Below, piece after piece: positions 6,543 to 31,077 of a DNA stretch of 64,000 bases. The number at the start of each line of letters is the position of its first letter. The first letter of the stretch is position 1. The DNA lies in NCBI GenBank assembly GCA_002500485.1, contig DLRJ01000033.1, forward strand, positions 7,035-71,034. Reading direction: 5' to 3'. The notes beneath the pieces are model-generated. The model searched no databases and was not told where the DNA came from. It saw nothing but the letters and a program-made list of their open reading frames with translations. This stretch comes from Dehalococcoidia bacterium UBA7891. GTDB taxonomy: Bacteria > Chloroflexota > Dehalococcoidia > Lucifugimonadales > UBA826. The translations under genes were made by a program, and so were the position numbers.

Positions 6543-6705
6543 CAAATATGGGCTTTACTCGCCCTCTTTTAAATTGAAGTTGGTTTTAACGCGGATTAAT
6601 CTCTGGGTTGAATATTAATAGCTATCGTGATAATTTCACTCAGATGAGATACTATTCCTGAGTTGCCGACTGCCTCATCCTTAGCAATTTCGGAGTTACA
6701 GTCTC

Positions 6706-13974: not shown

Positions 13975-14008
13975 ATATGAATAAGTTCACATATTGAGGT
14001 TCATTTGC

Positions 14009-15021: not shown

Positions 15022-16005
15022 ATGATTCTTATGGTAAGTGTCCAAGATTTATATGAAGCAAAGCAAGCTCTAAAAGGCGGAGCTGATATAGTCGATGTCA
15101 AGAACCTTCAAGAAGCCCTAGTAGGTTCGGCTCATCCTAACGTAGTGAAAGAAATCAGAGATGAAGTTCCAAGTGCACACCACGCAAGTGTCACCTTAGG
15201 AGTTGTGCCTAACCAAATAGGCACCGTCTCTATGGCTGTTTATGCCGCCGGAATCCTGGACGCAACTTCGGTCAAAGTAGGCTTCATGGTGAGTGAATAC
15301 GATGTGGCACTAGAAACGTTATTAGCAGCAAAAGAAGCTCTAATAGGAACTCAAACTAAACTAATTGGCTCACTTTTTGCAGACAATCTACTCTATGACG
15401 GTGGCATTGACCCAGACCTCATGGTGCAATTGGCGAAAGAAGGTCAATGTGACGGTTTTTTAATAGATACACTTGTAAAAGACGGTAGAAATTTATTCGA
15501 CTTTGTACCTGAAGATCGTCTGAAAGAAATGGTTTTGGAGGGAAAAGAATTGGGCATGAGCACAGCCCTGTCAGGCCATTTGAAGATGAGTGACCTTGAC
15601 GAGCTATCAAGAGTCAATCCTGATATTGTTGGAGTCAGAGGAGCCGTTTGCCAAAAAGGAGATCGTGACTCTCGGGTTCACTGGGAATCTGTATCGGAGT
15701 TCAAAAAACAACTAGATCTCAGGCAAACCGGCGAAATAGATGTATATCCTGAAAATAGAACCTCATCCGTAAACCAAGAATCAAACGGATGGATAATAAT
15801 AGATGGCACAGGAAAGACCTGTGCCGGGATAATAGCAACTCTTAGTGAGCAAATAAATGCCGATACCGCGTCGTTTGTTGAAGTGATAATACCTGACGTT
15901 TTAAACACATATGACTTAATAGTCTGGGCAGAAAAAAACAGCCATGACATTGTTACTCAGAGAAAAGATGCAGAAGGTTCTGTGAGAATGCTTATTAAGC
16001 CATAA
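15022..16005 (+). CDS. MfnB-like (5-formylfuran-3-yl)methyl phosphate synthase family domain fused to a C-terminal TusA/SirA-like domain
   Basis: The N-terminal ~235 aa align by eye with MfnB (MILMVSV..GGADIVDVKN.., SVKVGF, DIVGVRGAVCQKGDR). The C-terminal ~70 aa (IIDGTGKTCAGIIATL...VEVIIPDVLNTYDLIVWAEKNSHDIV...VRMLIKP) follow the TusA fold pattern with its Cys retained. Confidence 0.7.
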   Translation: MILMVSVQDLYEAKQALKGGADIVDVKNLQEALVGSAHPNVVKEIRDEVPSAHHASVTLGVVPNQIGTVSMAVYAAGILDATSVKVGFMVSEYDVALETLLAAKEALIGTQTKLIGSLFADNLLYDGGIDPDLMVQLAKEGQCDGFLIDTLVKDGRNLFDFVPEDRLKEMVLEGKELGMSTALSGHLKMSDLDELSRVNPDIVGVRGAVCQKGDRDSRVHWESVSEFKKQLDLRQTGEIDVYPENRTSSVNQESNGWIIIDGTGKTCAGIIATLSEQINADTASFVEVIIPDVLNTYDLIVWAEKNSHDIVTQRKDAEGSVRMLIKP

Positions 16006-16740: not shown

Positions 16741-17577
16741 CTACACATCACCTTTAGGGTAGGAACCAAAAATTTTCAGCATGGACACTTTTTTTTGAAG
16801 CGAGTCCAGTGCCTGTTTAACTTCAACGGTTCTCCTGTGCCCATCGATATCTACCAGAAAAACATAACGGCCTAAACGTCTTTTATTCGGTCTCGACTCA
16901 ATCTTCACAAGATTGATGTTTCTAGCTGCGAATTCTGTCAAAGACTCGCTAAGTATACCGGGGCTATCTCCATCAAATTCAAAGCAAAGAGAGGTTTTAT
17001 CATTTGAAGTTATTTCGTGGTCATCCTGTGAAAGAATAACAAACCTGGTTTCATTGTTGGGGTTGTCCTCTACATTTTTTTGCAGAACTACCGCCCCATA
17101 CAAATTAGCAGATCTTTCGCTTGATATAGCAGCTGAGTTCGGTGTCGAATCTAACATCTCCTCAACAGCTTTAGCGTTGCTTAAGGAAGCCATCAAGGTA
17201 GCTTGCGGTATATTATTCAGAAGAAATTGCCTACATTGACCCAATGATTGCGGGTGAGAAAATACAGTAGTGATATTTTCAAGATCAATTTCCTTCTGAG
17301 CCATCAAATAATGATTTATGGGGACTATGACTTCACCACAAATCGATAAGGTTGAATCGTGAATGAGTAAATCAAGTGTGAAAGTGACTCCACCCTCAAT
17401 ACTGTTTTCTATAGGCACGACTCCCTGATAAGATTCTCCCTCTTCCACTGATTTTGCAACAGCTGGAATCGATTCGACTGGCAAAAGTTCATCAACATTG
17501 TTCCACTGCTTAGCTGCCTGCTCACTGTAAGTTCCGGGAGGACCAAGATACGCTATTTTACGAACAGTTTTATTCAC
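16741..17577 (-). CDS. pheA: prephenate dehydratase (with C-terminal ACT domain)
   Basis: 278 aa. Contains KIAYLGPPGTYSEQAA and a TRF-containing region. GTG start overlaps the upstream stop (GTGA), with GGAGGA 5 nt upstream. Confidence 0.92.
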   Translation of the reverse strand: MNKTVRKIAYLGPPGTYSEQAAKQWNNVDELLPVESIPAVAKSVEEGESYQGVVPIENSIEGGVTFTLDLLIHDSTLSICGEVIVPINHYLMAQKEIDLENITTVFSHPQSLGQCRQFLLNNIPQATLMASLSNAKAVEEMLDSTPNSAAISSERSANLYGAVVLQKNVEDNPNNETRFVILSQDDHEITSNDKTSLCFEFDGDSPGILSESLTEFAARNINLVKIESRPNKRRLGRYVFLVDIDGHRRTVEVKQALDSLQKKVSMLKIFGSYPKGDV

Positions 17578-17993
17578 AAATCCTCCACAAGCATGGGAGC
17601 GACGAGGCTTTGCATTTTTTCGGTTATAAGTTCTGTCACGTCGATTACGATATCGATCCCCAAAAGCCTAAGCAGGTTGGCATTGTCTGGAGTATCACTT
17701 ATAGCAATGGTCCTGTCTACTTCAAAATGGTGCTTGGCTATTTGGCATGCTAGCATGTTGTCTTCGTCAGAGCTTAAGGTGGATATGAAAAGGTTAGCCC
17801 TTTTTACACCCGCGATATTTTGAGTAGCAATTTTAGTACCATCACCCAAAACCACTACCGAGCCCAGCAAATTGTCCGCAAGTCTCTGTTTCTCACCAAT
17901 TTCCTCTATCAGTGTTACTTCAGCACCAGAGGCCATCAACCATTCAGCTACTTTAATACCGGTGGTCCCACATCCTAAAATTATCGCGTACAA
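17574..17993 (-). CDS. RCK N-terminal (TrkA-N) NAD-binding domain protein, no TrkA-C domain
   Basis: Contains AIILGCGTTGIKVAEWL (GxGxxG). The track ORF extends to 18080 and overlaps the upstream gene. TTG at 17993 has GAGG 6 nt upstream and lies 13 nt after the upstream stop. Confidence 0.7.
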   Translation of the reverse strand: MYAIILGCGTTGIKVAEWLMASGAEVTLIEEIGEKQRLADNLLGSVVVLGDGTKIATQNIAGVKRANLFISTLSSDEDNMLACQIAKHHFEVDRTIAISDTPDNANLLRLLGIDIVIDVTELITEKMQSLVAPMLVEDL

Positions 17994-18006
17994 GGTATAC
18001 CTCTCA

Positions 18007-18462
18007 TCAATCCAATCCCTCCTTGATAACTTCCATGAGCAACCCATCGGGATTAATAACTTTAATACCAAGGTTCTCATATATTGGTAAAAGGTTGGAA
18101 TCCCTAACTAAACATACTACTAGCGGTATCCGCATAACATGACGCGCTAATTGACCGCTCATTAAGTTGACAGATTCTCTCGTAGTCGCTGCTATCAGAA
18201 GGTCTACATCCTGTACTCCGGCCTGCCTCAATGATACTTCTTGCGTTCCATCTCCAACAGCAGTCACAACTCTGGAGGTTTCAAGTAGGTGAGACGGCAG
18301 TGAAAAAAATGACTTCGGGTCTTTATCAATTACAATTACGATATTCCCGGACGATGATAATTCTATCGCGATTTGAGTGCCTAGTGAACCACAACCGATG
18401 ACAGCAATCCTTTTTAATCTTTGCACACCAGAATTCGAGTTTTCCTCTGAAGTTTGAGTCAT
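18007..18462 (-). CDS. RCK N-terminal (TrkA-N) NAD-binding domain protein, paralog of the downstream gene
   Basis: Contains IAVIGCGSLGTQIAIELS (GxGxxG). 151 aa, with no TrkA-C domain. Confidence 0.75.
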   Translation of the reverse strand: MTQTSEENSNSGVQRLKRIAVIGCGSLGTQIAIELSSSGNIVIVIDKDPKSFFSLPSHLLETSRVVTAVGDGTQEVSLRQAGVQDVDLLIAATTRESVNLMSGQLARHVMRIPLVVCLVRDSNLLPIYENLGIKVINPDGLLMEVIKEGLD

Positions 18463-18469
18463 TTAATTC

Positions 18470-18883
18470 CTAAGCCAACTTACCTGTATTTGTGCACATA
18501 ATTACATCACATTTTGCATTGCCCGCCACGTATCCACAAATATTGTCGTACAAATTGTCAGAATTCCGTTCCTTATATTCTAGGACTATAAGCCTTGCTT
18601 GAATATTCTCTGACTGACTAATAATTGCACTGCCTGAGAATCTAGCTTGGAGTATTTCCCCTTTAGATTTGACTTTAAATTTACTCACTATCTTTTCCAT
18701 TTGGGATAGAGTTTTTTCACCCTTTTCGGTATCCTGAGGTATTTCCATATCGATCGGATAATTCCTTTCGACTTCGATTACATAAAGTAAATTTACTGGA
18801 AATTTCATTTGCTTGGCCAACCGTGAAGCAGTGGCGGTTACATACTCATCACTGGTGGAACCTGTTATTACTGCAAGGATCAT
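18470..18883 (-). CDS. universal stress protein (USP)-like protein
   Basis: 137 aa with the USP pattern (ILAVITGS..., LIVLEYK..., AKCDVIMC). The ATP-binding glycine motif is not evident. Confidence 0.5.
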   Translation of the reverse strand: MILAVITGSTSDEYVTATASRLAKQMKFPVNLLYVIEVERNYPIDMEIPQDTEKGEKTLSQMEKIVSKFKVKSKGEILQARFSGSAIISQSENIQARLIVLEYKERNSDNLYDNICGYVAGNAKCDVIMCTNTGKLA

Positions 18884-18923
18884 ATGGCCATCTCTTCAAT
18901 AACAAATTTAACTTTTTGTTAAG

Positions 18924-19610
18924 TTAAATTTGTTCCTCTCCACCACCTGAAGAATCATCCAAGGTTTCAAGATCGCTATCCAAAGCTGCAACAATTACAA
19001 AATCTCCAGATTCGACTTTAGAACTTACAGGTGGATTCAAGGTCACTTTCCTTCCTTTACATAAAGCCACGGCAGTTATTCCATAACTGTCACGACTATT
19101 AGTAAATCCTATTTCTTCAAGTGTTGTGCCAGACAGTTTCTCTGGGACTCTGTATCTACTAACCCCGTAATTATTGGTTATTTCCAAGTATTCTTCAACA
19201 CTGGCATTAAACAGGCTATGCGCGAGTCTAGTTCCCATCTCTTCCTCGGGCTGAATAACCCTGTCCACTCCTATCCTCCTGAGAGTGCTAGCATGCAATG
19301 AGTCGCGAGCTCGAGCCACAATTGTTTTTACTCCAATAGTCTTGAGTAGAACGCAAGCCATGACACTATCTGCTATGTTGGTTTCAATAGTGATTATCGC
19401 TACATCATAATCCTGAATTCCTAGATCTCTCAATGCACTCTCATTAGTACACTCTGCAGATACTGCGTAGGTGCATTGACCCAACACGGACTGAACCCTG
19501 GCCTCATCTTTATCAATAGCCAAAACATCATGGCCGAGATTATAGAGGGTACGAGTGGTACTAACTCCAAATCTTCCTAGGCCTATAACTGCAACCTGTT
19601 TGTTAGCCAT
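18924..19610 (-). CDS. K+ uptake regulatory subunit TrkA/KtrA (TrkA-N plus TrkA-C)
   Basis: 228 aa. Contains VAVIGLGRFGVSTTRTL and a C-terminal RCK-C domain (SGTTLEEIGF... GDFVIVAA). Confidence 0.88.
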   Translation of the reverse strand: MANKQVAVIGLGRFGVSTTRTLYNLGHDVLAIDKDEARVQSVLGQCTYAVSAECTNESALRDLGIQDYDVAIITIETNIADSVMACVLLKTIGVKTIVARARDSLHASTLRRIGVDRVIQPEEEMGTRLAHSLFNASVEEYLEITNNYGVSRYRVPEKLSGTTLEEIGFTNSRDSYGITAVALCKGRKVTLNPPVSSKVESGDFVIVAALDSDLETLDDSSGGGEEQI

Positions 19611-19640
19611 AAAATTTACCTTCGACGTGCATTTAATACG

Positions 19641-21071
19641 CTAGCCAATTGTAACTGGTTCCGTAGCATACCGATACGGGCTCGCTTCTCTATTAGGAAC
19701 CATTCTAAGGCCTACTATAATCGGTCCAACTCGACCGATGAACATAGTAATTGCAACTATCACATGCCCCAATCTATTTAGCTCTTCGGTAGCACCAGTA
19801 CTCAGCCCTACTGTACCGAAAGCTGAAACAGATTCAAAGGCTAAATCCCTTATTAGAATATGGCTGTTAGTAAGGGCCAAACATAAAGTACATAGGAATA
19901 TAAAACCCAGACAAATTAGTGTCACAGCGTAAGATCTCCGAACTGTGGTCGGAGATATTTCTCTACCAAATGCTGTGACATGTGCTCTTTCTCTAATTAT
20001 GGCTACCACGCTGAGAACAATAATGAAAAAGGTTGTTACCTTAATACCGCCGGCGACAGACCCGGTCGCACCTCCAATAAACATCAAAAGAGACATAAAA
20101 ACATCAGTCGCAGGCCTAGCATACCCATAATCTATTGTGGAAAATCCAGCTGTACGACCACTCACACCCTCAAAAATGGACACACCAATCTGAGCATTTA
20201 TCGGCAAATCTCCAATCGTTTTAGGATTGTTACTTTCAGCAAAAAGAAAGAATGACGCGCCAGTAATTATTAATGCTACCGTCATCAATAATACTATTTT
20301 GGTCACTAAAGAGAATTTTCTAAGCGAATCCTTCGATACCAAGTCAAGGACTACCCAAAAACTTAAAGATCCCAGAATAATCAACCACCCTATTATGCTT
20401 AAAACAATAAAATCTTCTCTGAATGCGTGCAAGCCATCAGATTGGTTCAAAATAACAAACCCCGCATTATTGAATCCTGAAACCGAATGAAACAAAGCCT
20501 GCCAAGCGGCTTCCCCAGGAGATTCCAAAAATAGGAACCTTGCGAACAAAGCAAAAAAACCTATAACCTGAATTGATATAGCAGCGGCAACTATCGTAAC
20601 GCTTAACCTCTGAATACCGCCCATATTTTCGCTTCCCAAGGTTTCCCTAATCAGCAATCTCTGAGCCATTGAAACTCTCTGACCGAGAACAGCCAACAAG
20701 AAAGCAGCTAGAGTCATGAATCCCAGCCCTCCCACAAACATAAGGAGCAATATAATAACCTGACCACTTGAAGTCCAGTAGGTGGCAGTATCCACTATGA
20801 TCAAGCCTGTAACTGTCACGGCAGAAGTGGCAGTGAATATTGATAAAACAGGGTCCCCCCACCCTTGTTCATGGTGAGCAAATGGAGCCGACAGTAAAAG
20901 GGCTCCCACTAATATCAAAGCCAAAAACACCGCGACCAGTATTAGGGGAGAGGGAAAAGTACGGGCATTTATTCTTCTCTCATCTACATTAAAAGTGATA
21001 GGAGCTATTTCTGATCGCCTAGGTTTTGTTATAAAAATATCGCCAAGGCGTTTGTTGAACCTAGTATCCAT
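19641..21071 (-). CDS. TrkH/KtrB family K+ transporter membrane subunit
   Basis: 476 aa, polytopic, with repeated selectivity-filter-like motifs (TVTGL, NNAGF, SGRTAGFS, TVGLSTG). Confidence 0.9.
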   Translation of the reverse strand: MDTRFNKRLGDIFITKPRRSEIAPITFNVDERRINARTFPSPLILVAVFLALILVGALLLSAPFAHHEQGWGDPVLSIFTATSAVTVTGLIIVDTATYWTSSGQVIILLLMFVGGLGFMTLAAFLLAVLGQRVSMAQRLLIRETLGSENMGGIQRLSVTIVAAAISIQVIGFFALFARFLFLESPGEAAWQALFHSVSGFNNAGFVILNQSDGLHAFREDFIVLSIIGWLIILGSLSFWVVLDLVSKDSLRKFSLVTKIVLLMTVALIITGASFFLFAESNNPKTIGDLPINAQIGVSIFEGVSGRTAGFSTIDYGYARPATDVFMSLLMFIGGATGSVAGGIKVTTFFIIVLSVVAIIRERAHVTAFGREISPTTVRRSYAVTLICLGFIFLCTLCLALTNSHILIRDLAFESVSAFGTVGLSTGATEELNRLGHVIVAITMFIGRVGPIIVGLRMVPNREASPYRYATEPVTIG

Positions 21072-21313
21072 TTTATACTTCTATGTGAGATGGACCGTGA
21101 ATAATTATAAAAGAATTTTGATAATCTGCTAATAGTTTATATTTCAAATTAGCCTCTAATTATAGCAGTCTGCTAAAACAGGGCATTTGAAAGGTTTATA
21201 TATTCCTTTAATTGAGGAGAATGTAGCCCAAATTTGGCTATTCAGACCCTAAAAACACCGATATCCTTGAAAGATAAATTTAAGAAACAGGAAATGTCGG
21301 GAGTAAAAAACAA

Positions 21314-21910
21314 TTGAGAGCACCCAAAGGCTTTCACATGCCACACCCTGACATTCACCTACCTCACTTAATCCTTCCTCACGGCTTCCTACCGCACATA
21401 TTAGACCAATACATTCATTCCAGATGGAACCATTATTTTTTACAATGCTGCCTTGCCTCGGTATCACTGATACTGATATTACTAATTGGAGATACCTTAA
21501 AAACCGCAATAGTGGTCGGAATTGCATCCTCTGCCTTTACAATATTTGTAGTTCCAAACAGTGTGGCCGCAACACCACGCAAAGTAATTGGGGGGCATCT
21601 CTTAGCAGCCTTTATAGGAACCCTAATCGCCCTGATTCTTCAATCTCCACCTTTGATTCAACAGGTATTGGAAAATCGTTATTTCCTTGATGTAGCGGCA
21701 GCTCTATCCGTTGGGATTGGCATATTTTTGATGGTTGTTACCAACACTGAACACCCACCGGCCGCAGGAACCTCTCTTGGTTTAGTAATCCAATGCTGTG
21801 AACCAAATACAGGGGTTGATTGGTCCTCCATCATATTCATAATAGCTAGTGCCGGCTTGCTTTCTGGAGTAAGGATCGCCCTCCGTGATAAAATGGTGAA
21901 TCTTCTTTAA
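21314..21910 (+). CDS. HPP-family membrane protein
   Basis: Contains the TNTEHPPAAGTSLG motif and four TM segments. The start is uncertain (TTG 21314 or ATG 21338). Confidence 0.65.
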   Translation: MRAPKGFHMPHPDIHLPHLILPHGFLPHILDQYIHSRWNHYFLQCCLASVSLILILLIGDTLKTAIVVGIASSAFTIFVVPNSVAATPRKVIGGHLLAAFIGTLIALILQSPPLIQQVLENRYFLDVAAALSVGIGIFLMVVTNTEHPPAAGTSLGLVIQCCEPNTGVDWSSIIFIIASAGLLSGVRIALRDKMVNLL

Positions 21911-22046
21911 AAGGCATCTTGAAAGATCTCTATATACATATAAATATGTCTTTGCTGTAAAACTTAAGCATCGCAAAGCCATTTGTGAAATGACGGCGAT
22001 TCCATACCAGCACATGGATATCTAACAGGTTAGGCACACTAGATAT

Positions 22047-23192
22047 ATGAATTCCGACTTAGAATATTCCATTACTCGCATACACAATTCGAAGACAAAG
22101 TTGGTCATGTCTGTATCTGGAGTAGGCTCCCAATCAATTAATTGGTTATTAAGCGTTCCTGGCGCATCGAAAACTTTGATTGAAGCGACAATTCCATATT
22201 CCAATGAATCTCTCAATCGGTATATTGGAGAAGTGCCCAGACAATACGTGTCTAAAACAACAGCGTTATCGATGGCAAAAGCTGCATATATCCAGGGAGT
22301 CCAATATGGCAATCATGAGATAGACATTATTGGAGTTTCATGTACAGGAGCAATATCCACAAATCGAAAAAGAAGAGGTGACAATCAGGCGTTTATTGGA
22401 TTATGGGGCCCCAGATTAAAATATGTCGCCCACCTAATTCTCGAAAAAGGAGAAAGAAATAGGGTTGAGGAGGAAGAACTTGTGAGTTCACTAATCGTCC
22501 AATACATAGAGGAAAAACTACTAGGTAACAGTGTATTAAATATGGAATTAAACAAGTTGGAGTCTGTTTCTGTAGATGAAACAGAATTCCCCTCTGATCT
22601 TGATTCTTTAGTGAATGGCCATATTAGTTCTATTACTTACATGGGCTCTAATTTAGTGGGATTAGACAAAAGTTTCAAAGGTGGAATATTGTCTGGGTCC
22701 TTTAATCCAATGCACCAAGGACACATAGAGCTTTCGAAACTTGCATCTGATATGTTGGGAGTTCCAGTGGCGTTTGAAATATCTGCATCTAATGTGGACA
22801 AACCACCACTTCAAGCGAATGAAATAGAAAAGAGAGTATCTCAATTTGAAAGGTCAGAAACAGTGATTTTGACTTGTGCGCCATTGTTCGGGGAAAAATC
22901 CAGTATATTCCAAAATTCGACCTTCATCATAGGTAACGACACTGCCCTACGGTTAGTGGACCCCAAATACTATGACAATGATGTTCAAAACATGTACACA
23001 TCCTTGCAGAAGGTAAAGGATAATAAATGCGACTTTCTAGTGGCAGGGCGTCTCCAAAATAGCGAATTTAAAACTATAAGTGATATGGCGATACCTGAAG
23101 CATTTATTTCGTTATTTCAAGGTATACCCGAATCCCAATTCAGAATGGATTTATCTTCCACAGAACTTCGCAGCGACGGAACTAAGTTATAG
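22047..23192 (+). CDS. fusion protein: CinA-C/PncC-like N-terminal domain plus NadD-like nucleotidyltransferase C-terminal domain
   Basis: N-terminal region: SVSGVGSQSINWLLSVPGASKTLIEATIPYSNES (compare ESCTGG...PGSS...YSNEAK of PncC). C-terminal region: GSFNPMHQGHIEL (the HxGH motif of NadD/NMNAT) and DLSSTELRS (ISSTxIR-like). Confidence 0.65.
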   Translation: MNSDLEYSITRIHNSKTKLVMSVSGVGSQSINWLLSVPGASKTLIEATIPYSNESLNRYIGEVPRQYVSKTTALSMAKAAYIQGVQYGNHEIDIIGVSCTGAISTNRKRRGDNQAFIGLWGPRLKYVAHLILEKGERNRVEEEELVSSLIVQYIEEKLLGNSVLNMELNKLESVSVDETEFPSDLDSLVNGHISSITYMGSNLVGLDKSFKGGILSGSFNPMHQGHIELSKLASDMLGVPVAFEISASNVDKPPLQANEIEKRVSQFERSETVILTCAPLFGEKSSIFQNSTFIIGNDTALRLVDPKYYDNDVQNMYTSLQKVKDNKCDFLVAGRLQNSEFKTISDMAIPEAFISLFQGIPESQFRMDLSSTELRSDGTKL

Positions 23193-23194
23193 AA

Positions 23195-24649
23195 ATGAGC
23201 TATAAAAACCTGAGCGAATTCATTAGTTTTTTAGATTCTAAAAATCAAGTGCAATATATAGACGCTCAGGTGAGTAGGGATTTAGAAATTAGCGAGGTAA
23301 CCGATAGGGCAGTTAAGTCAGGAGGCCCTGTTCTGTATTTCCGTAATGTAGAAGGATTCACAATACCTGTTGTGACCAACCTATTTGGTACACACCAACG
23401 AATGGCTTGGGCTTTGGGTGTAGAAAATACTGATGATTTAACGCAGAAAGTCCGTGACATTCTGGGAATTGTAAAAACACCTCCCCAGTCAATGTTAGAC
23501 AAACTAAAAACTCTCAAAGACATGGCAAGCCTGGCCCGAACACAGCCCAAAAGAATTTCATCTGCTCCCTGTCAAGAAATAGTAAAGACGGGGCAAGATG
23601 CTAATCTAAATCATTTGCCTCATCTGACCTGCTGGCCTATGGACGGTGGCAGATACATCACTCTACCTCTGGTGATTTCTAAAGATCCTAGTTCAGGAAA
23701 AAGAAATGTCGGTACTTACCGTATGCAAATCTATGATTCTCACACTGCAGGCATGCATTGGCAGTCACATAAAGTCGGAGCAAGCCACTACAGGTCCGGC
23801 GAACTGAAGAAGTTACCAAAGATGGAAGTTGCCATTGCGTTAGGTTCCGACCCTGTAACTATGTGGACAGGAGCATTACCGTTACCTCCTGACATGGACG
23901 AAATAGCGGTATCAGGGGTATTGAGAAACTCATCTGTCGAAATGGTTAAATGTAAAACAGTTGACCTCGAAGTACCCGCCCATTCTGAAGCCGTGCTGGA
24001 AGGATATATAATCCCTGGGGAATTGAGGGAAGAGGGCCCGTTCGGTGATCACACCGGATACTATTCTCTTGAAGACAATTATCCTGTTTTCCATCTCACT
24101 GCTTTGACACATAAAAGACATCCCATTTATCCGGCCACTGTGGTAGGAAGGCCACCATCCGAAGATTTCTTTATGGGAAAAGCTGTAGAGAGGTTGATGC
24201 TTCCTGCACTCCAATTAACTTTGCCAGAGGTAGTAGATATTAATATGCCAGCAGAAGGTGTTTTCCATAATTTGGTTATCGTTTCAATGAAAAAGGAATA
24301 TCCAGGACACACAAGAAAGGTCATGAATGCAATTTGGGGATTGGGATTGATGATGCTGGCAAAAGGGATAGTCATTGTAGACGACACAGTTAATGTCCAT
24401 GATTTGTCTGAAGTTGCGTGGCGAGTCACTAGCAATATTAATCCAGATAAAGACATTGTGATCACCGAAGGACCTGTCGATGACTTAGATCATGCAAGCC
24501 CAACACCTAAATACGGGAGTAAAATCGGGATAGATGCTACAAAAAAGACCGCACTTGATGGAAGGGAAAGAATTTGGCCTCCTGACGTAGTAATGTCAGA
24601 GGAAATAAAATTGCTGGTCACTAATCGCTGGTCAGAGTACGGTTTTTGA
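23195..24649 (+). CDS. UbiD-family (prFMN-dependent) decarboxylase
   Basis: 484 aa. Typical UbiD N-terminus (LSEFISFLDSKNQVQYIDAQVS) plus GTYRMQ and EGPFGDHTGYY motifs. Confidence 0.92.
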   Translation: MSYKNLSEFISFLDSKNQVQYIDAQVSRDLEISEVTDRAVKSGGPVLYFRNVEGFTIPVVTNLFGTHQRMAWALGVENTDDLTQKVRDILGIVKTPPQSMLDKLKTLKDMASLARTQPKRISSAPCQEIVKTGQDANLNHLPHLTCWPMDGGRYITLPLVISKDPSSGKRNVGTYRMQIYDSHTAGMHWQSHKVGASHYRSGELKKLPKMEVAIALGSDPVTMWTGALPLPPDMDEIAVSGVLRNSSVEMVKCKTVDLEVPAHSEAVLEGYIIPGELREEGPFGDHTGYYSLEDNYPVFHLTALTHKRHPIYPATVVGRPPSEDFFMGKAVERLMLPALQLTLPEVVDINMPAEGVFHNLVIVSMKKEYPGHTRKVMNAIWGLGLMMLAKGIVIVDDTVNVHDLSEVAWRVTSNINPDKDIVITEGPVDDLDHASPTPKYGSKIGIDATKKTALDGRERIWPPDVVMSEEIKLLVTNRWSEYGF

Positions 24650-25521
24650 TATTCATGCCCCTTAACAGGTTTTGGCCGAAAATACCCAATTTCTTTGATG
24701 CAATAAAGTTTCAAGAATCTCTTTTCGCACTCCCTTTTGCCTACATAGGAATGCTGCTTGCGATTCGGGGCCTACCTGATTTTCAAAGCTTTTTTTGGAT
24801 AACACTCGCAATGGTGTCGGCTAGAACCGTGGGTATGATTGCTAACAGAATTATAGACAGACACATAGACTCAAAAAATCCACGGTCGTCGCAAAGGCAT
24901 CTCCCACGTGGAATTCTTTCAGTTACCGATTTGTTAGTCCCTGGAATAATTTCCTCACTCATTTTTATGCTATGCGCTTACATGCTTAACACTTTAGCAC
25001 TGATTTTAGCCCCTGTAGCTCTCATATACCTTGTGGTGTACCCGTTTACCAAAAGGGTCACTTGGTTGGCTAATTTGCTTCTTGGATGGGCTCTCGCCAT
25101 AGCCCCAGCAGCAGCTTGGATCGGAATGCTTGGTAAACTAGGATGGCAGCCTGTTTTACTTTCAACTTCAGTGGCCCTTTGGGCTGGAAGTTTTGACATC
25201 ATCTACCATACACAAGATGTTTCTTTTCAAAAAAAAGAGAAGTTACATTCAGTCGCATCTCGTTTTGGAATCTCTAAAGCCTTTAAAATTGCACAGTGCA
25301 TGGATCTATTGGCTGTATTGTGTCTAATAATACTAGGCGCATGGATGCAATTAGGAATATTTTATTACGGTGGCTGCGGATTAAGTACAATTTTTCTTGT
25401 CTACAAATATATATTAGTAAAGCCTAGCGATTTATCTAAAATGGGAATGAGCTTCATGAGAATTAACGCTTTTGTATCTTGTTCCATGTTGTTAGGTACA
25501 ATTGCATCATTAATAGTGTAA
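24646..25521 (+). CDS. UbiA-family aromatic prenyltransferase (4-hydroxybenzoate polyprenyltransferase / MqnP-like)
   Basis: 291 aa, polytopic. Contains the NRIIDRHIDSKNPR Asp-rich motif. It overlaps the UbiD stop by 4 nt. Confidence 0.88.
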   Translation: MIFMPLNRFWPKIPNFFDAIKFQESLFALPFAYIGMLLAIRGLPDFQSFFWITLAMVSARTVGMIANRIIDRHIDSKNPRSSQRHLPRGILSVTDLLVPGIISSLIFMLCAYMLNTLALILAPVALIYLVVYPFTKRVTWLANLLLGWALAIAPAAAWIGMLGKLGWQPVLLSTSVALWAGSFDIIYHTQDVSFQKKEKLHSVASRFGISKAFKIAQCMDLLAVLCLIILGAWMQLGIFYYGGCGLSTIFLVYKYILVKPSDLSKMGMSFMRINAFVSCSMLLGTIASLIV

Positions 25522-25523
25522 AA

Positions 25524-26123
25524 ATGGAAAAACTCGAGGCACGAATTGTGGTTGGTATATCTGGGGCTAGTGGATCCCTTTTAGCCGCCAAAACGGTTGA
25601 CGCATTGTTAGACAGAAAAGTTGGGGTATCGCTGATCGCGTCAAACCCAGCCCGAATGGTATGGCAGCACGAGATGAGTATGTCCTACGGAGAAAGTATT
25701 GAAGAATGGTCATCCAACAATAATTTTGAGCATTTCGCTATAGGGGATTTTAAGGCGCCTATAGCGAGTGGAACTTACCCAACTACTGGAATGGCCATAG
25801 TCCCATCTAGCATGGCAACAATTTCTGCAGTGGCAAAAGGTCTATCAGATAATTTAATAAGAAGAGCTGCCGACGTTTGCCTAAAAGAGAAAAGACCTTT
25901 AGCAATGGTTCCACGAGAGTCTCCGCTTAATGCTATACATCTAGGTAACATGAAATACCTCGCCACTTTGGGTGTGACTATCCTACCTTCAGACCCTCCA
26001 TACTACCTGCCTATAACGACCCTTGAGGAAGTTGCCAATTTTACAGCCCAGAGAATATTGATAGCACTAGGTATAACCGACCAACTACCTGAGGAGATGC
26101 AATATAGAGGTCCAATTATTTAA
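25524..26123 (+). CDS. ubiX: UbiX-family flavin prenyltransferase
   Basis: Contains RIVVGISGASGSLLAAK and PSSMATISAVAKGLSDNLIRRAADVCLKEKRPL. ATG lies 2 nt after the UbiA stop (the track ORF starts earlier, at 25479). Confidence 0.92.
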   Translation: MEKLEARIVVGISGASGSLLAAKTVDALLDRKVGVSLIASNPARMVWQHEMSMSYGESIEEWSSNNNFEHFAIGDFKAPIASGTYPTTGMAIVPSSMATISAVAKGLSDNLIRRAADVCLKEKRPLAMVPRESPLNAIHLGNMKYLATLGVTILPSDPPYYLPITTLEEVANFTAQRILIALGITDQLPEEMQYRGPII

Positions 26124-26189
26124 TTCTATTGTGCTGATCTAACTGGCAACTATAAAATGGTCATGATTAAAACTGAAAAAGGAAGTGAC

Positions 26190-26756
26190 ATGATTTCGGC
26201 AATCGAGGCGGTAAAGGCCATTAGCGATATCAGGAGTAGTGAAGTGGTCGTAGCCACGATGACCGCAAATAGATATTGGGAATCTGTCTCTCAAAACCAA
26301 GAAATGGATTTGCCCATATTTGGGGCGATGGGTAAAGCCTCTTCAGTTGCTTTAGGTCTGGCATTATCTCAACCAAATAAAAAGATAGTTGTTTTGGATG
26401 GTGATGGAAGTTTATTGATGAATCTAGGCTCCTTGGTAACTGTGGCAGGTATGGAACCAAAGAATTTCCTTCATTTTGTATTTGAAGACGGCGCATATTG
26501 GACCACGGGAGGTCAACCTATTCCGGGAAACGGGAAATTTAATTTATCTGCTATGGCCAATGATGCTGGCTACAAAAGCTCCCATTCCTTTGAAGATCTA
26601 GAAACATTAGTAAGTGAACTTCCCAGTCTGATGAGGCAAGATGGTCCAATATTTGTTTCAATTAAAATTACTCATCCAGAGCATGCAGGTGAGCCTTTTA
26701 TAGGCTCCACAAAAAATGCGATGGAGAAACTGTCAAAATCAATATCAGGTTATTAA
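26190..26756 (+). CDS. thiamine-diphosphate-binding protein resembling sulfopyruvate/phosphonopyruvate decarboxylase beta subunit (PP domain only)
   Basis: Contains VLDGDGSLLMNLGSL, a TPP-binding GDGS...N motif. About 188 aa, and no Pyr-domain partner in the window. ATG 26190 has AGGAAG upstream (track start is 26157). Confidence 0.7.
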   Translation: MISAIEAVKAISDIRSSEVVVATMTANRYWESVSQNQEMDLPIFGAMGKASSVALGLALSQPNKKIVVLDGDGSLLMNLGSLVTVAGMEPKNFLHFVFEDGAYWTTGGQPIPGNGKFNLSAMANDAGYKSSHSFEDLETLVSELPSLMRQDGPIFVSIKITHPEHAGEPFIGSTKNAMEKLSKSISGY

Positions 26757-26759
26757 TCA

Positions 26760-27419
26760 ATGTATGATTTTCACACCCATACTTTTTTAAGTGACGGAGT
26801 GCTTTCCCCGATCGAACTCATAAGGCGAGCTATTGCGATCGGGTATAAGACGATGGCAATAACGGACCATGTTGGTCCAGGCAATCTGGAATTTGTGTTA
26901 GCTACCTTAAAAAAAGATTGTGAAATGGCAGAAAAAAGATGGGACATAAAAGTTTACCCAGGTGTAGAAATCACCCATACCCCAACAGAAGATATCCACC
27001 TTTTGGCCAAAGAAGCACGATCCATTGGTGCCAAAATTGTTAACGTCCATGGGGAAACCATAATGGAGCCGGTAATCCCTGGAACTAATATAGCTGCTGT
27101 ATCATCCGAGTATGTAGATATATTGGCACATCCTGGTCTAATAACGGTCGAAGAAGCAAAAATGGCCGCCAAGAACGGAGTTTTCTTAGAAATTTCAGGT
27201 AGAAAAGGTCATGGTTTGGCCAATGGGCATGTTGTGAAAACAGCTCGAGAAAGTGGTGCTACATTGATACTGGACTCAGACGCCCATGCTCCAGAAGACT
27301 TGATGACTCAGGAATATGCTGAAAAAGTGGCTGCTGGATCCGGGCTAAATGAAACAGAGCGTGCCACATTACTTGAGCAAACACCTTTAAGTCTAGTGTC
27401 CCGAGTCAATTCGCGATAA
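26760..27419 (+). CDS. PHP-domain metal-dependent phosphoesterase (histidinol-phosphatase-like)
   Basis: MYDFHTHTFLSDG at the N-terminus, later DHV/HGE/DSDAH metal ligands. Starts 3 nt after the previous stop. Confidence 0.8.
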   Translation: MYDFHTHTFLSDGVLSPIELIRRAIAIGYKTMAITDHVGPGNLEFVLATLKKDCEMAEKRWDIKVYPGVEITHTPTEDIHLLAKEARSIGAKIVNVHGETIMEPVIPGTNIAAVSSEYVDILAHPGLITVEEAKMAAKNGVFLEISGRKGHGLANGHVVKTARESGATLILDSDAHAPEDLMTQEYAEKVAAGSGLNETERATLLEQTPLSLVSRVNSR

Positions 27420-27420
27420 C

Positions 27421-28401
27421 CTAATCGTCTGGAAGAACGACAGATTCTGGATCTCCTCCGTTAACGACTTTGGCGGTATTATAGGTGGCAAATACCCTGC
27501 TTTTGTCTGAAGCCTCCTGAGTAAAAGCGGCTAGATGTGGAGTAATCAGGACATTATCCATATCGATCAGTGGATTATCTTCAGGAGTGGGCTCTACTTC
27601 AAGCACATCTACCCCCGCAGCCATTATTTTGTTCTGTTCAATCGCACGGATAAAAGCATCTTCATCAACCACAGGGCCCCTACATGCATTGATTAGGATT
27701 GAAGTGGGTTTCATCAAATCAAATTCTCTATCACTTATCATTCCTCTCGTATTACGATTCAAAGGAACATGTAAGGTAATGATGTCAGATGTGGATAATA
27801 ATTCATCCAATCCCACCTTCTCCATAGAGAGATCACTCACCAATTCTGAATCTGGATCAACGACATCATGATAGATAAGTTCACACTCCCAGCCTTGTAA
27901 TCTCTTGGCTACTCGAGATCCTATTCTGCCAACGCCTATTATGCCGACTGTTTTTCCAGTTAACTCATGTGCCTGTGAAAACCAGTCGATTCGAATGTTC
28001 GACATCCATTTCCCGTCTTGCACACTTTTAAATTGCAACTGTAATTTTCGGTAGACTCCTATCATCAAGGCGATGGTATGCTCCGCAACCGCCACGGCGT
28101 TACCTCCCCCGTTATTGGACACTTTGATTCCAAGCTCTCCAAGTGCAGCCTTATCAAGTTGGTTGGTACCTGCACTAGTAGTTTGAATAAGGCGCAATTC
28201 TGGGCATTTAGCAGCCAATTCAAGGTCAAATACAAGGGCTCCTCCCAAGATTATCGCCTTGGTATTTTGTAATGCCTCAGTCGATTCCTCCAAGGAGCCC
28301 GAAGAGTTAACCCAATCTATTTCAACCCCTTCCGGCATTGCATCTTTTAACACTTGTAGACCAGAATCATCCGGGGCCCAAAAAACAACTTGATCATTCA
28401 T
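27421..28401 (-). CDS. D-isomer-specific 2-hydroxyacid dehydrogenase (NAD-binding)
   Basis: Contains GKTVGIIGVGRIGSRVAKRL, CRGPVVDE and ITPHLAAFT. Confidence 0.9.
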   Translation of the reverse strand: MNDQVVFWAPDDSGLQVLKDAMPEGVEIDWVNSSGSLEESTEALQNTKAIILGGALVFDLELAAKCPELRLIQTTSAGTNQLDKAALGELGIKVSNNGGGNAVAVAEHTIALMIGVYRKLQLQFKSVQDGKWMSNIRIDWFSQAHELTGKTVGIIGVGRIGSRVAKRLQGWECELIYHDVVDPDSELVSDLSMEKVGLDELLSTSDIITLHVPLNRNTRGMISDREFDLMKPTSILINACRGPVVDEDAFIRAIEQNKIMAAGVDVLEVEPTPEDNPLIDMDNVLITPHLAAFTQEASDKSRVFATYNTAKVVNGGDPESVVLPDD

Positions 28402-28535
28402 ATTGGTAACATACCCCCTAACGGTAAGAATACTTTCTGTTTGTGATTATATGTAGTTAATTACAACCTCTCAACTAGGGAGTCTTTTTGTTTATAATTC
28501 CACACGTAGAATACAGAAAATATTAGGACAGGCTA

Positions 28536-29738
28536 TTGAAACCCCAAGCTTTGAAAAATGTGAGGATTCTGGATTTGACTCACTATATATCTGGGCCATA
28601 CTGCACAAAACTATTGGGTGATTTTGGGGCCGATGTCATAAAAATTGAAAACCCTCTAGTCGGTGACCCTTGCAGAAAAATGCCACCCTTTGACGAAACC
28701 AACCCGAATAGTAATGACAGTCTTTTATTTCAATATCTCAACACCAACAAGAAAAGCGTTGAACTCGACTTAAAATCCGATTTCGGTCATCTTGCTGCTG
28801 AAGAATTAGTGAGGAATTCTGACATACTAGTGGAGAATTTTCGACCTGGAACCCTGGCATCCTACGGTTTAACAGAGAGCAAACTGCGTACCTTAAACCC
28901 CAATTTAATTGTTGTATCTATTAGTAATTTTGGCCAAACGGGACCTTATAGAGACTTTGAGGCAACTGATCTAGTATTTTATGCTTTGGGGGGATTGATG
29001 TTCATTTTTGGATCAATTAACAAATCTCCTCTCAAACACGCTTTCCACCAAGCACAATTCAAAGCAGGCACTAACGCAGCCTCAGCAGCATTAATGGCTT
29101 TCTACGAGATGATAAATTCGGGTACCGGTCAGAAAGTGGACATATCTATTCAGGAGAGCATGGCTGCAGCGGTACGTGATACAACCACAAGTTACGCCGC
29201 CTCTGGCATAGTTAGAACGAGACAAACATTAATGAACGGAGAGCTTCCTCGGGCACCTATACAAGTCAAAGATGGATATATCGTCCCAATCACTTTTGGA
29301 TCTACCGACTGGAACAAAACTGCCAATCTGTTGGGAGATGAAAGTTTGGCTGACCACAAATTTCAGACACCTGAAGGAAGAAGGATGCATGCTGAGGAAT
29401 TTGAGAACTTGGTGAAAGCTGCTTTCATCCGTAGAGGTAAACACGAACTTTTTTACGGAGCCCACTCTCACCGTGAACTGGTTTACGGATTAGTACAAGA
29501 CGCAGCGGATCTAATAGAAAACCCGCAATATCAACATGATCAATATTTTCAGGCTATTGGTAATTCCGGTTCAGATACACCCAAATTTCCAGGAAGACCT
29601 TTTAAGCTATCCAAAACTCCTTGGAATATACAAACAACTGCACCTGCATTAGGGCAACATACCGAGGAAATACTATTTAATAAATTAAATTTACCTATCG
29701 ATAAATTTCAGAATACTGGGCGGTCAAATGAAAAATAA
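28536..29738 (+). CDS. family III CoA-transferase
   Basis: Contains NVRILDLTHYISGPYCTKLLGDFGADVIKIENP. TTG start. Confidence 0.9.
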   Translation: MKPQALKNVRILDLTHYISGPYCTKLLGDFGADVIKIENPLVGDPCRKMPPFDETNPNSNDSLLFQYLNTNKKSVELDLKSDFGHLAAEELVRNSDILVENFRPGTLASYGLTESKLRTLNPNLIVVSISNFGQTGPYRDFEATDLVFYALGGLMFIFGSINKSPLKHAFHQAQFKAGTNAASAALMAFYEMINSGTGQKVDISIQESMAAAVRDTTTSYAASGIVRTRQTLMNGELPRAPIQVKDGYIVPITFGSTDWNKTANLLGDESLADHKFQTPEGRRMHAEEFENLVKAAFIRRGKHELFYGAHSHRELVYGLVQDAADLIENPQYQHDQYFQAIGNSGSDTPKFPGRPFKLSKTPWNIQTTAPALGQHTEEILFNKLNLPIDKFQNTGRSNEK

Positions 29739-31077
29739 TGGCATCCTCAACGGTATCCGAGTAGTTGAGCTAGGCCAACTAATCGCCGTGCCTTACGCCA
29801 CAAAACTCCTATCAGACATGGGTGCAGAAATTATCAGGTTGGAATCAGCTCAACGGCCGGATGCCTACCGGCTTGCTGATTTTTACGATGAGAGAGAGGA
29901 TGGGAAATATTGGAATCGAGCCATAAATTTTAATGAGCAAAATAGAAACAAACTAAGTCTTGGACTAGAATTAGACCATGAAAGCAGCCTTGAATATTTG
30001 CACGATTTGATTAGCATAAGTGATGTCTTTGCATGCAATTTCACCCCTAGAGTGATGAAAAAATTCGGCCTAGAGTACGAGCATCTCCAAAAAATACGTC
30101 CCGATATAATCGTCATTTCATCAACGGGTTATGGTCACACTGGACCGTGGTCGAGTTTTGGTGCCATAGGGTTTGGTACTGAGGCTGCGTCAGGACTTGC
30201 GGCCGCAACAGGATACGAAAATGGCCCACCAGTTCAACCAGAAATACCTTATCCAGATTACACTGCCGCCGAGCACACTGTCTTTGCTGTAATGGCAGCG
30301 CTTATACATAGACTAAAGGAAGGCGAAGGCCAGTTTATTGAGATATCGCAAGCAGAATGTGTTACATCAACTATCCCGGAAACAATACTTGAATACACAG
30401 CCAACAAAAAGATAGTTAAGCGAATGGGCAACTCGCATCCCAACATATCTCCACATGGCTGTTATCCATGCAAAGGTCAAGATAAATGGATAACCATCAC
30501 TGCTAATTCTCAGGATCAATGGAAATCATTATCAAATTTGTTGCTTCCAGAAACTGGCACTGACAATCGATTTGAATCTAATGAGTCACGCATACATAAC
30601 CGAAAAGAATTAGACAAATTGATATCTTCAAGAACTCTATCATGGGACAATGTCGTATTGATGAATACTTTACAAAGAAAAGGTGTGGCTGCAGGGGCAG
30701 TATTGAATGGTAAAGAACTGCTATTTAATGAGCATTTGAACCAAAGGGATTTTTTTGAAATAGTTGATCATCATCCAGAAAGTGAAGTTCCCACACTTCC
30801 ATATCCTGGCAAGCCATGGAAAATGTCGGCAAATTCAGATGTCAAAATGAAGGGAGCACCTTTATTTGGACAGCATAACGAATCAATATTGAAAAATCAC
30901 CTGGGATTGACCAACGAATCCTATGATGCACTGATTAATGAAGAAGCAGTGGTTAACTATATTAAATTAGACCCCAAAGAAATTCTTGTATCAAGAGAGG
31001 CGAGAGAAGAAGAAGGGTCTATATATTCTTATGATCCTGATTTCAAATCCACCATAAAATCTTATTTCAACATTTGA
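29728..31077 (+). CDS. family III CoA-transferase
   Basis: Contains GIRVVELGQLIAVPYATKLLSDMGAEIIRLES. It overlaps the previous gene by 11 nt. Confidence 0.9.
   Translation: MKNNGILNGIRVVELGQLIAVPYATKLLSDMGAEIIRLESAQRPDAYRLADFYDEREDGKYWNRAINFNEQNRNKLSLGLELDHESSLEYLHDLISISDVFACNFTPRVMKKFGLEYEHLQKIRPDIIVISSTGYGHTGPWSSFGAIGFGTEAASGLAAATGYENGPPVQPEIPYPDYTAAEHTVFAVMAALIHRLKEGEGQFIEISQAECVTSTIPETILEYTANKKIVKRMGNSHPNISPHGCYPCKGQDKWITITANSQDQWKSLSNLLLPETGTDNRFESNESRIHNRKELDKLISSRTLSWDNVVLMNTLQRKGVAAGAVLNGKELLFNEHLNQRDFFEIVDHHPESEVPTLPYPGKPWKMSANSDVKMKGAPLFGQHNESILKNHLGLTNESYDALINEEAVVNYIKLDPKEILVSREAREEEGSIYSYDPDFKSTIKSYFNI

Follow-up and report, generated by a model that had tools for sequence, protein, structure and literature searches.

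A late futalosine-type menaquinone gene trio with conserved accessory genes in SAR202 Chloroflexota

Six closely spaced genes on one strand

The 64-kb stretch of DNA analyzed here (the window) comes from the Chloroflexota genome Dehalococcoidia bacterium UBA7891 (GenBank assembly GCA_002500485.1, contig DLRJ01000033.1, positions 7,035 to 71,034). Between its positions 22047 and 27419 a trio of UbiD, UbiA and UbiX genes is preceded by a gene that joins a CinA-like to a NadD-like domain, hereafter fus, and followed by genes for a thiamine pyrophosphate (TPP) enzyme PP-domain protein and a PHP-family phosphoesterase. What is new at this locus is the conserved set of accessory genes around a known kind of operon; no new pathway is demonstrated. 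An original prediction, made from the sequence letters, had described the six + strand open reading frames, and their positions and spacings were confirmed from the sequence. The motifs that it had picked out (SVSGVG, YSNESL, GSFNPMHQGH, LSSTELR and GDGS) are all present in the translations, and its domain calls were borne out by Pfam and NCBIfam models, each judged against its curated cutoff (gathering threshold, GA, or equivalog cutoff). The six genes, and the convergent gene that follows them, are:

22047-23192, + strand: fus (gene 1), 381 amino acids; CinA/PncC-fold N-domain at about 1-165 and NadD-like C-domain at about 196-381
23195-24649, + strand: UbiD-family decarboxylase dependent on prenylated flavin mononucleotide (prFMN), MqnL / SCO4490-like, 484 amino acids, by Pfam and NCBIfam
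24646-25521, + strand: UbiA-superfamily polyprenyltransferase, closest to MqnP, 291 amino acids; start TTG at 24646, alternative ATG at 24655
25524-26123, + strand: UbiX-family flavin prenyltransferase, MqnM-type, 199 amino acids; the longest open reading frame begins at TTG 25479
26190-26756, + strand: TPP-enzyme PP-domain protein, 188 amino acids; the longest open reading frame begins at 26157
26760-27419, + strand: PHP-family metal-dependent phosphoesterase, 219 amino acids, by Pfam and NCBIfam; last gene of the operon
27421-28401, - strand: SerA-like 2-hydroxyacid dehydrogenase, convergent with the PHP gene, its stop 1 nt beyond the PHP end

Gaps of 2 nt separate fus from UbiD and UbiA from UbiX, and 3 nt separate the TPP from the PHP gene. 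The 4-nt overlap of UbiD and UbiA that had been predicted at 24646-24649 exists if UbiA starts at TTG 24646, but a start at ATG 24655 replaces it with a 5-nt gap. The UbiX to TPP gap is 33 or 66 nt depending on the start codon, and ATG 26190, which leaves 66 nt, is most likely the TPP start because an AAGGAAG ribosome-binding site lies 5 nt upstream and homologues are 188 amino acids long. Close packing is common in the window, where 8 of the 32 same-strand pairs outside the cluster are spaced by 10 nt or less, including unrelated genes such as cmk (cytidylate kinase), an acyltransferase gene and glmS; spacing alone is therefore weak evidence for shared function. Control of the operon by a riboswitch or other RNA was considered and rejected, as no Rfam element was found in 21000-28600, even at E ≤1, and promoter-like and terminator-like sites inside the cluster were not in excess of the shuffled expectation.

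The UbiD, UbiA and UbiX genes

All three Pfam domains of the UbiD family (UbiD_N, UbiD and UbiD_C) are present in the second gene. It passes the NCBIfam model TIGR03701 (mena_SCO4490) with 599.4 bits against a cutoff of 495.9, covering residues 8-443 of 484, and fails the ubiquinone UbiD equivalog NF008175 (408.8 bits against 788). The third gene matches Pfam UbiA with 165.7 bits. Its best NCBIfam match, MqnP_DT, reaches 270.6 bits, under the cutoff of 430, and the other MqnP models are likewise failed (242.8 against 420, and 184 against 375); the generic model TIGR01475 (ubiA_other) is passed, with 263.8 bits against 180.8. The UbiA gene is flanked by UbiD and UbiX genes both here and in 36 related loci. 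The fourth gene matches Pfam Flavoprotein (115.4 bits) and passes TIGR00421 (ubiX_pad) with 154.2 bits against 108.9.

A trio of these families was named MqnL, MqnP and MqnM by Ravcheev and Thiele and predicted to carry out the last steps of the futalosine pathway, the late menaquinone steps of which have largely been assigned by comparative genomics (PMC4746308). The Chloroflexi count among the menaquinone organisms, with both menaquinone pathways represented in the phylum (PMC3914697). The trio had been predicted to be a prFMN-decarboxylase and prenyltransferase module of quinone biosynthesis, of either the ubiquinone or the late futalosine/menaquinone kind. That assignment holds and resolves to the menaquinone version; the ubiquinone reading was rejected, since the menaquinone-type UbiD model is passed, the ubiquinone equivalog is failed and the Chloroflexi are listed with menaquinone. 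By its family matches, the trio is thus identified as the known late module of the futalosine pathway, a known kind of cluster. Pfam scans of the window's open reading frames found none of the early mqn genes (MqnA, C, D and E) in the 64 kb.

Compared with the mqnL-mqnP-mqnM cluster of the Streptomyces SCO4490-SCO4492 type (PMC4746308), the locus agrees in its three families, in their order and in a UbiD gene that passes the SCO4490 equivalog model, whereas the MqnP-specific NCBIfam cutoffs are not reached. It differs further in its added genes: ahead of the trio stands the CinA-like::NadD-like gene, probably in translational coupling with it, and behind the trio a PHP phosphatase gene, with or without the TPP PP-domain gene. 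The same extra genes are kept across Dehalococcoidia/SAR202 loci.

Domains and catalytic residues of fus

Pfam recognizes the C-terminal half of fus as CTP_transf_like (25.1 bits, above the GA of 21), and the N-terminal half reaches 21.6 bits with CinA (PF02464), under the GA of 23.5. An AlphaFold2 model of the full-length protein, built on 14 family members, had a predicted local distance difference test score (pLDDT) of 89.5, and the C-domain modelled alone scored 89.4. Foldseek matched the N-domain to CinA/PncC structures (6mr3, 2a9s, 4ct8 and 5kol) with E-values from 1.7e-7 to 1e-5 and template modelling (TM) scores, normalized to the target, of about 0.7. A search of the PDB with the single N-domain sequence returned chance antibody matches only, and a profile search was needed for the CinA match. 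For the C-domain the top five Foldseek matches were all NadD (8aih, E 2.8e-6, about 20% identity, TM 0.42-0.48), with phosphopantetheine adenylyltransferase (PPAT) and cytidylyltransferases ranking after them, and a profile search of the PDB also placed NadD first (E 4e-5). The C-domain motifs GxFNPxHxGH, (F/I)IGxD and DISSTxxR align to those of NadD 8aih. The two-domain architecture and the degenerate PncC signatures described in the original prediction are thus supported by Pfam, Foldseek and HMM alignment.

The catalytic residues of the PncC fold were sought in two fus alignments, one of 14 Chloroflexota sequences and a separate, wider set of 15 more distant members. In the nicotinamide mononucleotide (NMN) deamidase of Agrobacterium (AtCinA), catalysis depends on a Ser/Lys dyad, the S31A and K63A variants being inactive, and S48, Y58, T105 and R145 serve binding (PMC5384747). 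An HMM alignment to 2a9s and 4ct8 placed the catalytic Lys (AtCinA K63, TtCinA K301) opposite fus position 56, where all 14 Chloroflexota members have L, M or F and none of the 15 wider members has Lys. The position aligned with the nucleophile is Ser in the window fus and Ala in most relatives. The Chloroflexota alignments show no variation at GAS39-41, Y51, T100 and R139; among N-domain residues in the wider set, full invariance is limited to the GAS Gly and Ser, Y51 and an Arg.

In the nucleotidyltransferase half, the 14 Chloroflexota sequences all share H223, G225, H226, S370, S371 and R375; across the wider set SSTxxR is invariant, and the Gly of HxGH (G225) is nearly so, varying in one distant member. 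The family also has a motif of its own, (E/M)(L/I)S..N(V/A)DKPPL, with invariant E244, N249, D251 and K252, in a region where NadD models and structures are not aligned. All NadD equivalog models are failed, the best score being 26.5 bits against a cutoff of 240.

The N-domain therefore has the fold of the PncC/CinA NMN deamidases (AtCinA, 2A9S; TtCinA, 4CT8) and appears to keep AtCinA G46/S48 and Y58 as GAS39-41 and Y51, which are actually aligned; T100 for T105 and R139 for R145 are candidate correspondences. Unlike those enzymes it has no catalytic Lys, a Ser that is not conserved and a sub-threshold Pfam score, and its fusion partner is a nucleotidyltransferase in place of the COG1058 pyrophosphatase domain of CinA. 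With NadD/NMNAT enzymes the C-domain has HxGH, (F/I)IGxD and SSTxxR in common, along with the top five structural matches, but its identity to them is only about 20%, the equivalog cutoffs are not reached and the E244/N249/D251/K252 motif is its own. With the catalytic Lys replaced throughout and the Ser variable, the protein is not expected to act as a deamidase through the known mechanism. On these alignments and models, fus is best described as a dead-deamidase CinA-like domain joined to a probably active NadD-like adenylyltransferase; the probable ligand of the PncC-like domain is a pyridine mononucleotide or a similar one, and by these tests fus is, in the strict sense, a member of neither PncC nor NadD.

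A different function for fus would be that of a bifunctional NAD-salvage enzyme that deamidates NMN to nicotinic acid mononucleotide (NaMN) and adenylylates the product through its NadD half, with no relation to the quinone genes beside it and a fortuitous place among them. The two domains do match two successive reactions of the pyridine nucleotide cycle, the window fus has Ser at the nucleophile-aligned position, unrelated genes are often tightly spaced in the window, and the labels that sources give to family members ('hypothetical', 'PncC', 'cytidyltransferase-like') include, in some, NaMN adenylyltransferase. However, the residue whose loss in K63A inactivates the Agrobacterium enzyme (PMC5384747) is non-Lys in every aligned member, the Ser position is Ala in most, and the CinA score lies under the gathering threshold. 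Fortuitous packing would also leave unaccounted for the fus-mqnL spacing kept across 39 species-level loci and the adjacency to MenA, both described below. This explanation is accordingly considered very unlikely.

Distribution and neighbors of the fus family

At 50% identity the fus family comprises 6,554 representatives at E ≤1e-3 and 2,410 at E ≤1e-30, the latter nearly all of about 380 amino acids and with both domains. One member, an NCBI protein labelled 'SAR202 cluster bacterium', has 100% identity to the window fus product. Named members come from SAR202, Dehalococcoidia, Anaerolineae, Planctomycetota and Phycisphaerae, and eukaryotic members from Chlorokybus, Pedinophyceae, Tetraselmis, Gloeochaete, Eutreptiella and Paratrimastix, with a further JGI 'Mesen1' protein. 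Full-length two-domain homologues occur in green, streptophyte, glaucophyte and euglenid algae and in Paratrimastix (P0281, P0309, P0328, P0269, P0357, P0319 and P0408). Many of the eukaryotic homologues carry N-terminal extensions of 40-80 or more residues, which could be targeting peptides.

Gene neighborhoods were surveyed with one genome per species. At least 572 stretches encoded fus; the best 80, all labelled Chloroflexota, were examined and, together with locus L001, form a set of 81 Chloroflexota loci. The order fus-UbiD-UbiA-UbiX occurs in 39 of them, and the co-conservation outside the window genome that the original prediction had named as a check was therefore found. In these 39 loci the gene directly after fus is a UbiD orthologue 62-95% identical to that of the window. 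In 37 of the 39 the fus stop and the UbiD start are separated by an estimated -11 to +7 nt, despite fus identities to the window protein down to 37%. The full six-gene order was also found in L088, a 3.76-Mb genome.

Three further contexts were seen. In 32 loci, which form a nested clade of the neighbor-joining (NJ) tree used to relate the Chloroflexota fus sequences, a Flavin_Reduct (PF01613) gene lies directly 5' of fus, overlapping it or within about 50 nt, and 26 of the 32 have NuoA, B, C, D, H and I downstream, with NuoA about 75 nt to 5 kb past fus in the loci examined. The mqnLPM-context fus sequences are the basal, paraphyletic part of that tree. In an Anaerolineae clade of five loci, MenA lies 3' of fus on the same strand, within about 30-50 nt (L050, 10198-11169; L065, about 10178-11053; L078, about 10181-11032; L172, 6208-7134; L173, 6269-7198). 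This MenA passes TIGR00751 with 141.4 bits against 102.15 and is thereby assigned as the 1,4-dihydroxy-2-naphthoate polyprenyltransferase of the classical pathway. The remaining loci, about 7-10, have unrelated fus neighbors, and about half of the Chloroflexota fus loci lack any quinone neighbor.

The Flavin_Reduct gene encodes about 190 amino acids in loci that include L020, L027, L047, L064 and L070 (at about 8300-9000) and L174 (4450-5001). In L174 it overlaps fus by 1 nt and no nuo operon follows, which indicates that the flavin reductase and fus are the real pair in that clade. FeoAB iron-transport genes come after MenA in the two Anaerolineae loci with called genes (L172 and L173).

Outside the Chloroflexota, 83 loci were sampled, from two direct look-ups of Planctomycetota-like members and about 80 metagenome loci seeded with distant fus members. 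In 82 of the 83 no Mqn, MenA, Nuo, flavin-reductase, TPP or PHP neighbor was found, the one exception (L158) being a Chloroflexota-like contig, and the sampled loci had no other recurrent neighbor theme. A family-wide quinone link was therefore rejected: the link vanishes outside the Chloroflexota in the sampled loci, and fus is not a universal quinone-pathway gene. Within the Chloroflexota, the tie of fus to menaquinone and respiratory genes is real and is more than fortuitous packing predicts. Packing by chance, which the original prediction had allowed as an alternative, is exceeded by the recurrent link of fus to MqnLPM, to MenA and to flavin reductase with nuo.

Such neighbors raise the question of whether fus is itself a component of menaquinone biosynthesis in Chloroflexota. 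As an adenylyltransferase with a ligand-binding PncC-like domain, it would activate, repair or supply a nucleotide-type cofactor or intermediate for naphthoate prenylation, for decarboxylation, or for quinone reduction before methylation. It adjoins head-group prenyltransferase loci of both pathways (MqnP within mqnLPM in the 39 loci, MenA in the Anaerolineae clade), a third clade pairs it with flavin reductase and an NADH:quinone oxidoreductase operon, and its tight mqnL spacing, suggestive of translational coupling, has been kept over deep divergence. Chance alone would, by a rough estimate, produce two separate adjacencies to menaquinone genes with a probability of about 1e-3. Against such a role stand the sampled loci outside the phylum, the Chloroflexota loci with unrelated neighbors, the occurrence of the family in eukaryotic algae, and the known mqnLPM clusters, which are described without a fus-like gene (PMC4746308). 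The MqnLPM, MenA and nuo contexts may also stem from one ancestral arrangement, in which case the number of independent events is small. A dedicated menaquinone function for fus is thus judged unlikely. The literature search found no paper combining CinA, nucleotidyltransferase and menaquinone, and none on At2g01220; the Pof1 paper (PMC13191266) has nothing on the CinA-like::NadD-like architecture. Yeast POF1 and the plant protein At2g01220 may be further members of the fus family, in which algal homologues are the ones shown.

The TPP PP-domain gene

The only Pfam domain in the fifth gene is TPP_enzyme_C, in keeping with its prediction as a gene lacking the Pyr domain. Its nearest NCBIfam families are the C-terminal half of phosphonopyruvate decarboxylase (TIGR03297; 120.7 bits against 312.5), sulfopyruvate decarboxylase beta (TIGR03846; 108.1 against 221.5) and PRK06163, all under cutoff, and the closest solved chain is 9iz3_B, a 'putative phosphonopyruvate decarboxylase beta subunit' (E 1.8e-16). 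The gene product retains the GDGS...TGGQ motif, with ED in place of the usual DN/NN of the TPP motif.

In TPP enzymes a PP domain is not catalytic without a Pyr domain from another protein. A Pfam scan of about 48 window open reading frames found no such partner (TPP_enzyme_N, PF02776), and none was called beside the TPP homologues in neighborhoods L082, L083 and L085-L088. Open reading frames in the UbiX-PHP gaps of other loci were considered as the partner and rejected, as they encode a luciferase-like monooxygenase, toxin-antitoxin, tetratricopeptide-repeat (TPR) or inositol-monophosphatase (IMPase)-like proteins. Compared with the split sulfopyruvate and phosphonopyruvate decarboxylases (ComDE; 9iz3 alpha/beta), the product has the same beta-subunit size and GDGS...TGGQ motif, but no alpha (Pyr) subunit gene is adjacent or in the window, NN is ED, and the genomic partner is a PHP phosphatase.

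The gene was found in 15 of the 31 informative mqn-context loci, i.e., those with enough downstream sequence, always upstream of PHP and never without it, and L082 has a TPP-PHP pair without mqn genes. It is thus a facultative, mobile member of the cluster. A luciferase-like monooxygenase gene lies between UbiX or TPP and PHP in three loci (L011, 13096-14031; L037, 6149-7090; L038, 13478-14419). In L085-L087, at about 6700-9000, the region from TPP to the dehydrogenase contains inserted TPR-repeat genes, a HicA/HicB pair and DDE transposases, which indicates that the 3' part of the operon tolerates insertions.

The TPP, PHP and 2-hydroxyacid dehydrogenase genes could alternatively form a separate pathway of the sulfolactate/sulfopyruvate or phosphonopyruvate type (phosphatase, dehydrogenase and decarboxylase) that has been appended to the mqn operon. 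Such a pathway would fit the nearest TPP families, the pair in L082, the absence of TPP genes without PHP from the mqn loci, and L083, in which the TPP homologue lies beside a TauE sulfite exporter gene, a luciferase-like monooxygenase gene (7604-8497) and a flavin reductase gene. Against it stand the lack of a Pyr partner among the open reading frames scanned, the scores of all the specific models below their cutoffs, the ED in place of the canonical NN and the 13 loci that have PHP but not TPP; nor was a phosphoenolpyruvate (PEP) mutase or ComA/B/C seen in the window. An appended pathway of this kind is highly improbable. The literature search found no paper on SAR202 with sulfopyruvate decarboxylase.

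The phosphatase position downstream of UbiX

The sixth gene, correctly predicted to be of PHP type, is a full-length match to NF004981 / PRK06361 ('histidinol phosphate phosphatase domain-containing protein'; 291.8 bits, cutoff 117, covering 1-215 of 217) and also matches Pfam PHP with 39.3 bits, but it fails the HisJ model TIGR01856 (23.9 bits against 90.2). It occurs in 28 of the 31 informative loci, including the 13 without TPP. In two others (L009, 13061-13849; L023, 7538-8365) its place is taken by an IMPase-family protein that scores 243.3 bits with TIGR02067 (HisN) against a cutoff of 275, encoded a few nt past UbiX on the same strand and before the convergent dehydrogenase. The sequence evidence indicates that PHP has there been replaced in place by a non-orthologous, HisN-like phosphatase. 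A third locus (L030, 13375-14250) has in this slot a 291-amino-acid protein with no Pfam hit and a DPFDGS motif reminiscent of the IMPase superfamily. Some phosphatase is therefore kept downstream of UbiX in essentially all informative loci.

HisJ (PHP type) and HisN (IMPase type) are the textbook pair of analogous histidinol phosphatases. The PHP gene matches a model named for the histidinol-phosphatase domain and is exchanged for a HisN-like protein at two loci, but the HisJ cutoff is not reached, the HisN-like protein is just under its own, and no other his genes lie nearby. The exchange for a HisN-like phosphatase at this position suggests a generic or housekeeping role, and the PHP gene most likely encodes a generic phosphomonoesterase of the histidinol-phosphatase type.

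Surroundings of the cluster

Directly upstream, on the - strand at 17574-21071, lies a potassium-uptake block of two short TrkA-N genes, a universal stress protein gene, TrkA and TrkH, and an HPP-family membrane protein gene (21314-21910, + strand) stands between this block and fus. Three family-III CoA-transferase genes are found in the window, all on the + strand (4896-6164, 28536-29738 and 29728-31077); the last two overlap, and as a pair they are conserved downstream of the cluster in related genomes. A dihydrodipicolinate synthase (DHDPS)-family gene (13994-14980, +) is followed by a gene of the 4-(hydroxymethyl)-2-furancarboxaldehyde-phosphate (4-HFC-P) synthase family (PF04476, MfnB family; 15022-16005, +), and the two are kept together in the related locus L001 (567-2711; 3.26-Mb genome). 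The MfnB family is known from archaeal methanofuran biosynthesis and is unexpected in a marine Chloroflexota bacterium. Elsewhere in the window, a nucleoside 2-deoxyribosyltransferase-like gene (59904-60584, +) adjoins a TauE/SafE sulfite exporter gene (60619-61590, -), and a luciferase-like monooxygenase gene lies at 48697-49545.

Discussion

The best explanation for these observations, held with a probability of roughly 0.6, is that the six genes form a polycistronic operon of SAR202 (Chloroflexota, Dehalococcoidia) in which a late futalosine core is co-expressed with fus, recruited to a respiratory context, with the TPP gene as a facultative passenger and the PHP gene as a generic phosphatase. 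From family membership and established knowledge, the UbiX-type MqnM would prenylate reduced FMN to prFMN, the UbiD-type MqnL would use this cofactor to decarboxylate the naphthoate head group, and the UbiA-type MqnP would add the polyprenyl chain; methylation and the early mqn steps would be encoded elsewhere. The fus gene, directly 5' of mqnL and probably translationally coupled to it, would not encode a dedicated pathway enzyme and may act on an NMN/NaMN-like nucleotide. In Chloroflexota it would have been recruited to co-expression with the menaquinone and NADH-dehydrogenase system, and this recruitment would couple the supply of pyridine or flavin nucleotides to the respiratory chain.

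Several points weigh against this explanation. Much of the conservation of the cluster reflects gene order kept throughout the lineage and not selection for a functional unit: TrkA/TrkH are syntenic with the mqn cluster in many Dehalococcoidia loci, HPP is present in many of these, and the dehydrogenase, two family-III CoA-transferases, cytidylate kinase and acyltransferase are syntenic downstream in many loci. As the flanking genes are conserved too, the operon associations amount to few independent evolutionary events on the NJ tree. Co-transcription is inferred from spacing and synteny only, and the substrate assignment of fus is weakened by NadD scores far below the cutoffs (26 against 240 bits) and by the TM scores of 0.42-0.48. 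Finally, the retention of a phosphatase (28 PHP plus 2-3 IMPase-like proteins in 31 loci) could mean that it is functionally tied to the module rather than a passenger, and in-place replacement by an analogous enzyme would also be expected if phosphatase activity matters to the operon.

The suggestion of the original prediction that the operon encodes an undescribed variation on aromatic prenylation and decarboxylation is not borne out by the survey. The TPP gene is present in only about half of the informative loci, a HisN-like protein can stand in for PHP, and the fus family often has no quinone neighbor. With the TPP gene optional and fus, across its broad family, mostly elsewhere, new chemistry involving a nucleotide-activated intermediate or a TPP-dependent step is unsupported. 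Three puzzles are left unexplained: the persistent fus-mqnL spacing, the company of fus with MenA, flavin reductase and complex I, and the retention of a phosphatase after UbiX.

The most far-reaching reading is that fus is a new menaquinone or respiratory accessory adenylyltransferase of the Chloroflexota, guided by its dead-deamidase domain, and that the downstream phosphatase supplies UbiX with its monophosphate. The product of fus would then be a nucleotide-type cofactor or intermediate, newly made or recycled, on which naphthoquinone prenylation, decarboxylation or reduction depends, and the PHP or IMPase-like enzyme would provide the UbiX-type enzyme with, for example, dimethylallyl monophosphate from the diphosphate. 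The conjunction of both roles is considered distinctly unlikely. If true, a family that spans more than 2,400 sequence clusters and reaches into the algae would gain a function, and the origin of the prenyl monophosphate used by UbiX enzymes would be addressed. To our knowledge, it is not settled where UbiX-type enzymes obtain prenyl monophosphate and reduced FMN in vivo.

Returning to the preferred explanation, a late futalosine operon with a recruited fus, the missing catalytic Lys cautions against annotating the fus family, whose members are now 'hypothetical' or mis-annotated as PncC, as NMN deamidases. The link of fus to quinone genes is a real but unexplained lead. Abundant deep-ocean SAR202 bacteria appear to hold the three late-step genes in one tightly packed operon together with an adenylyltransferase-like protein and a phosphatase, and the presence of fus beside menaquinone or complex I genes in other Chloroflexota lineages offers a concrete functional lead for a very large protein family.

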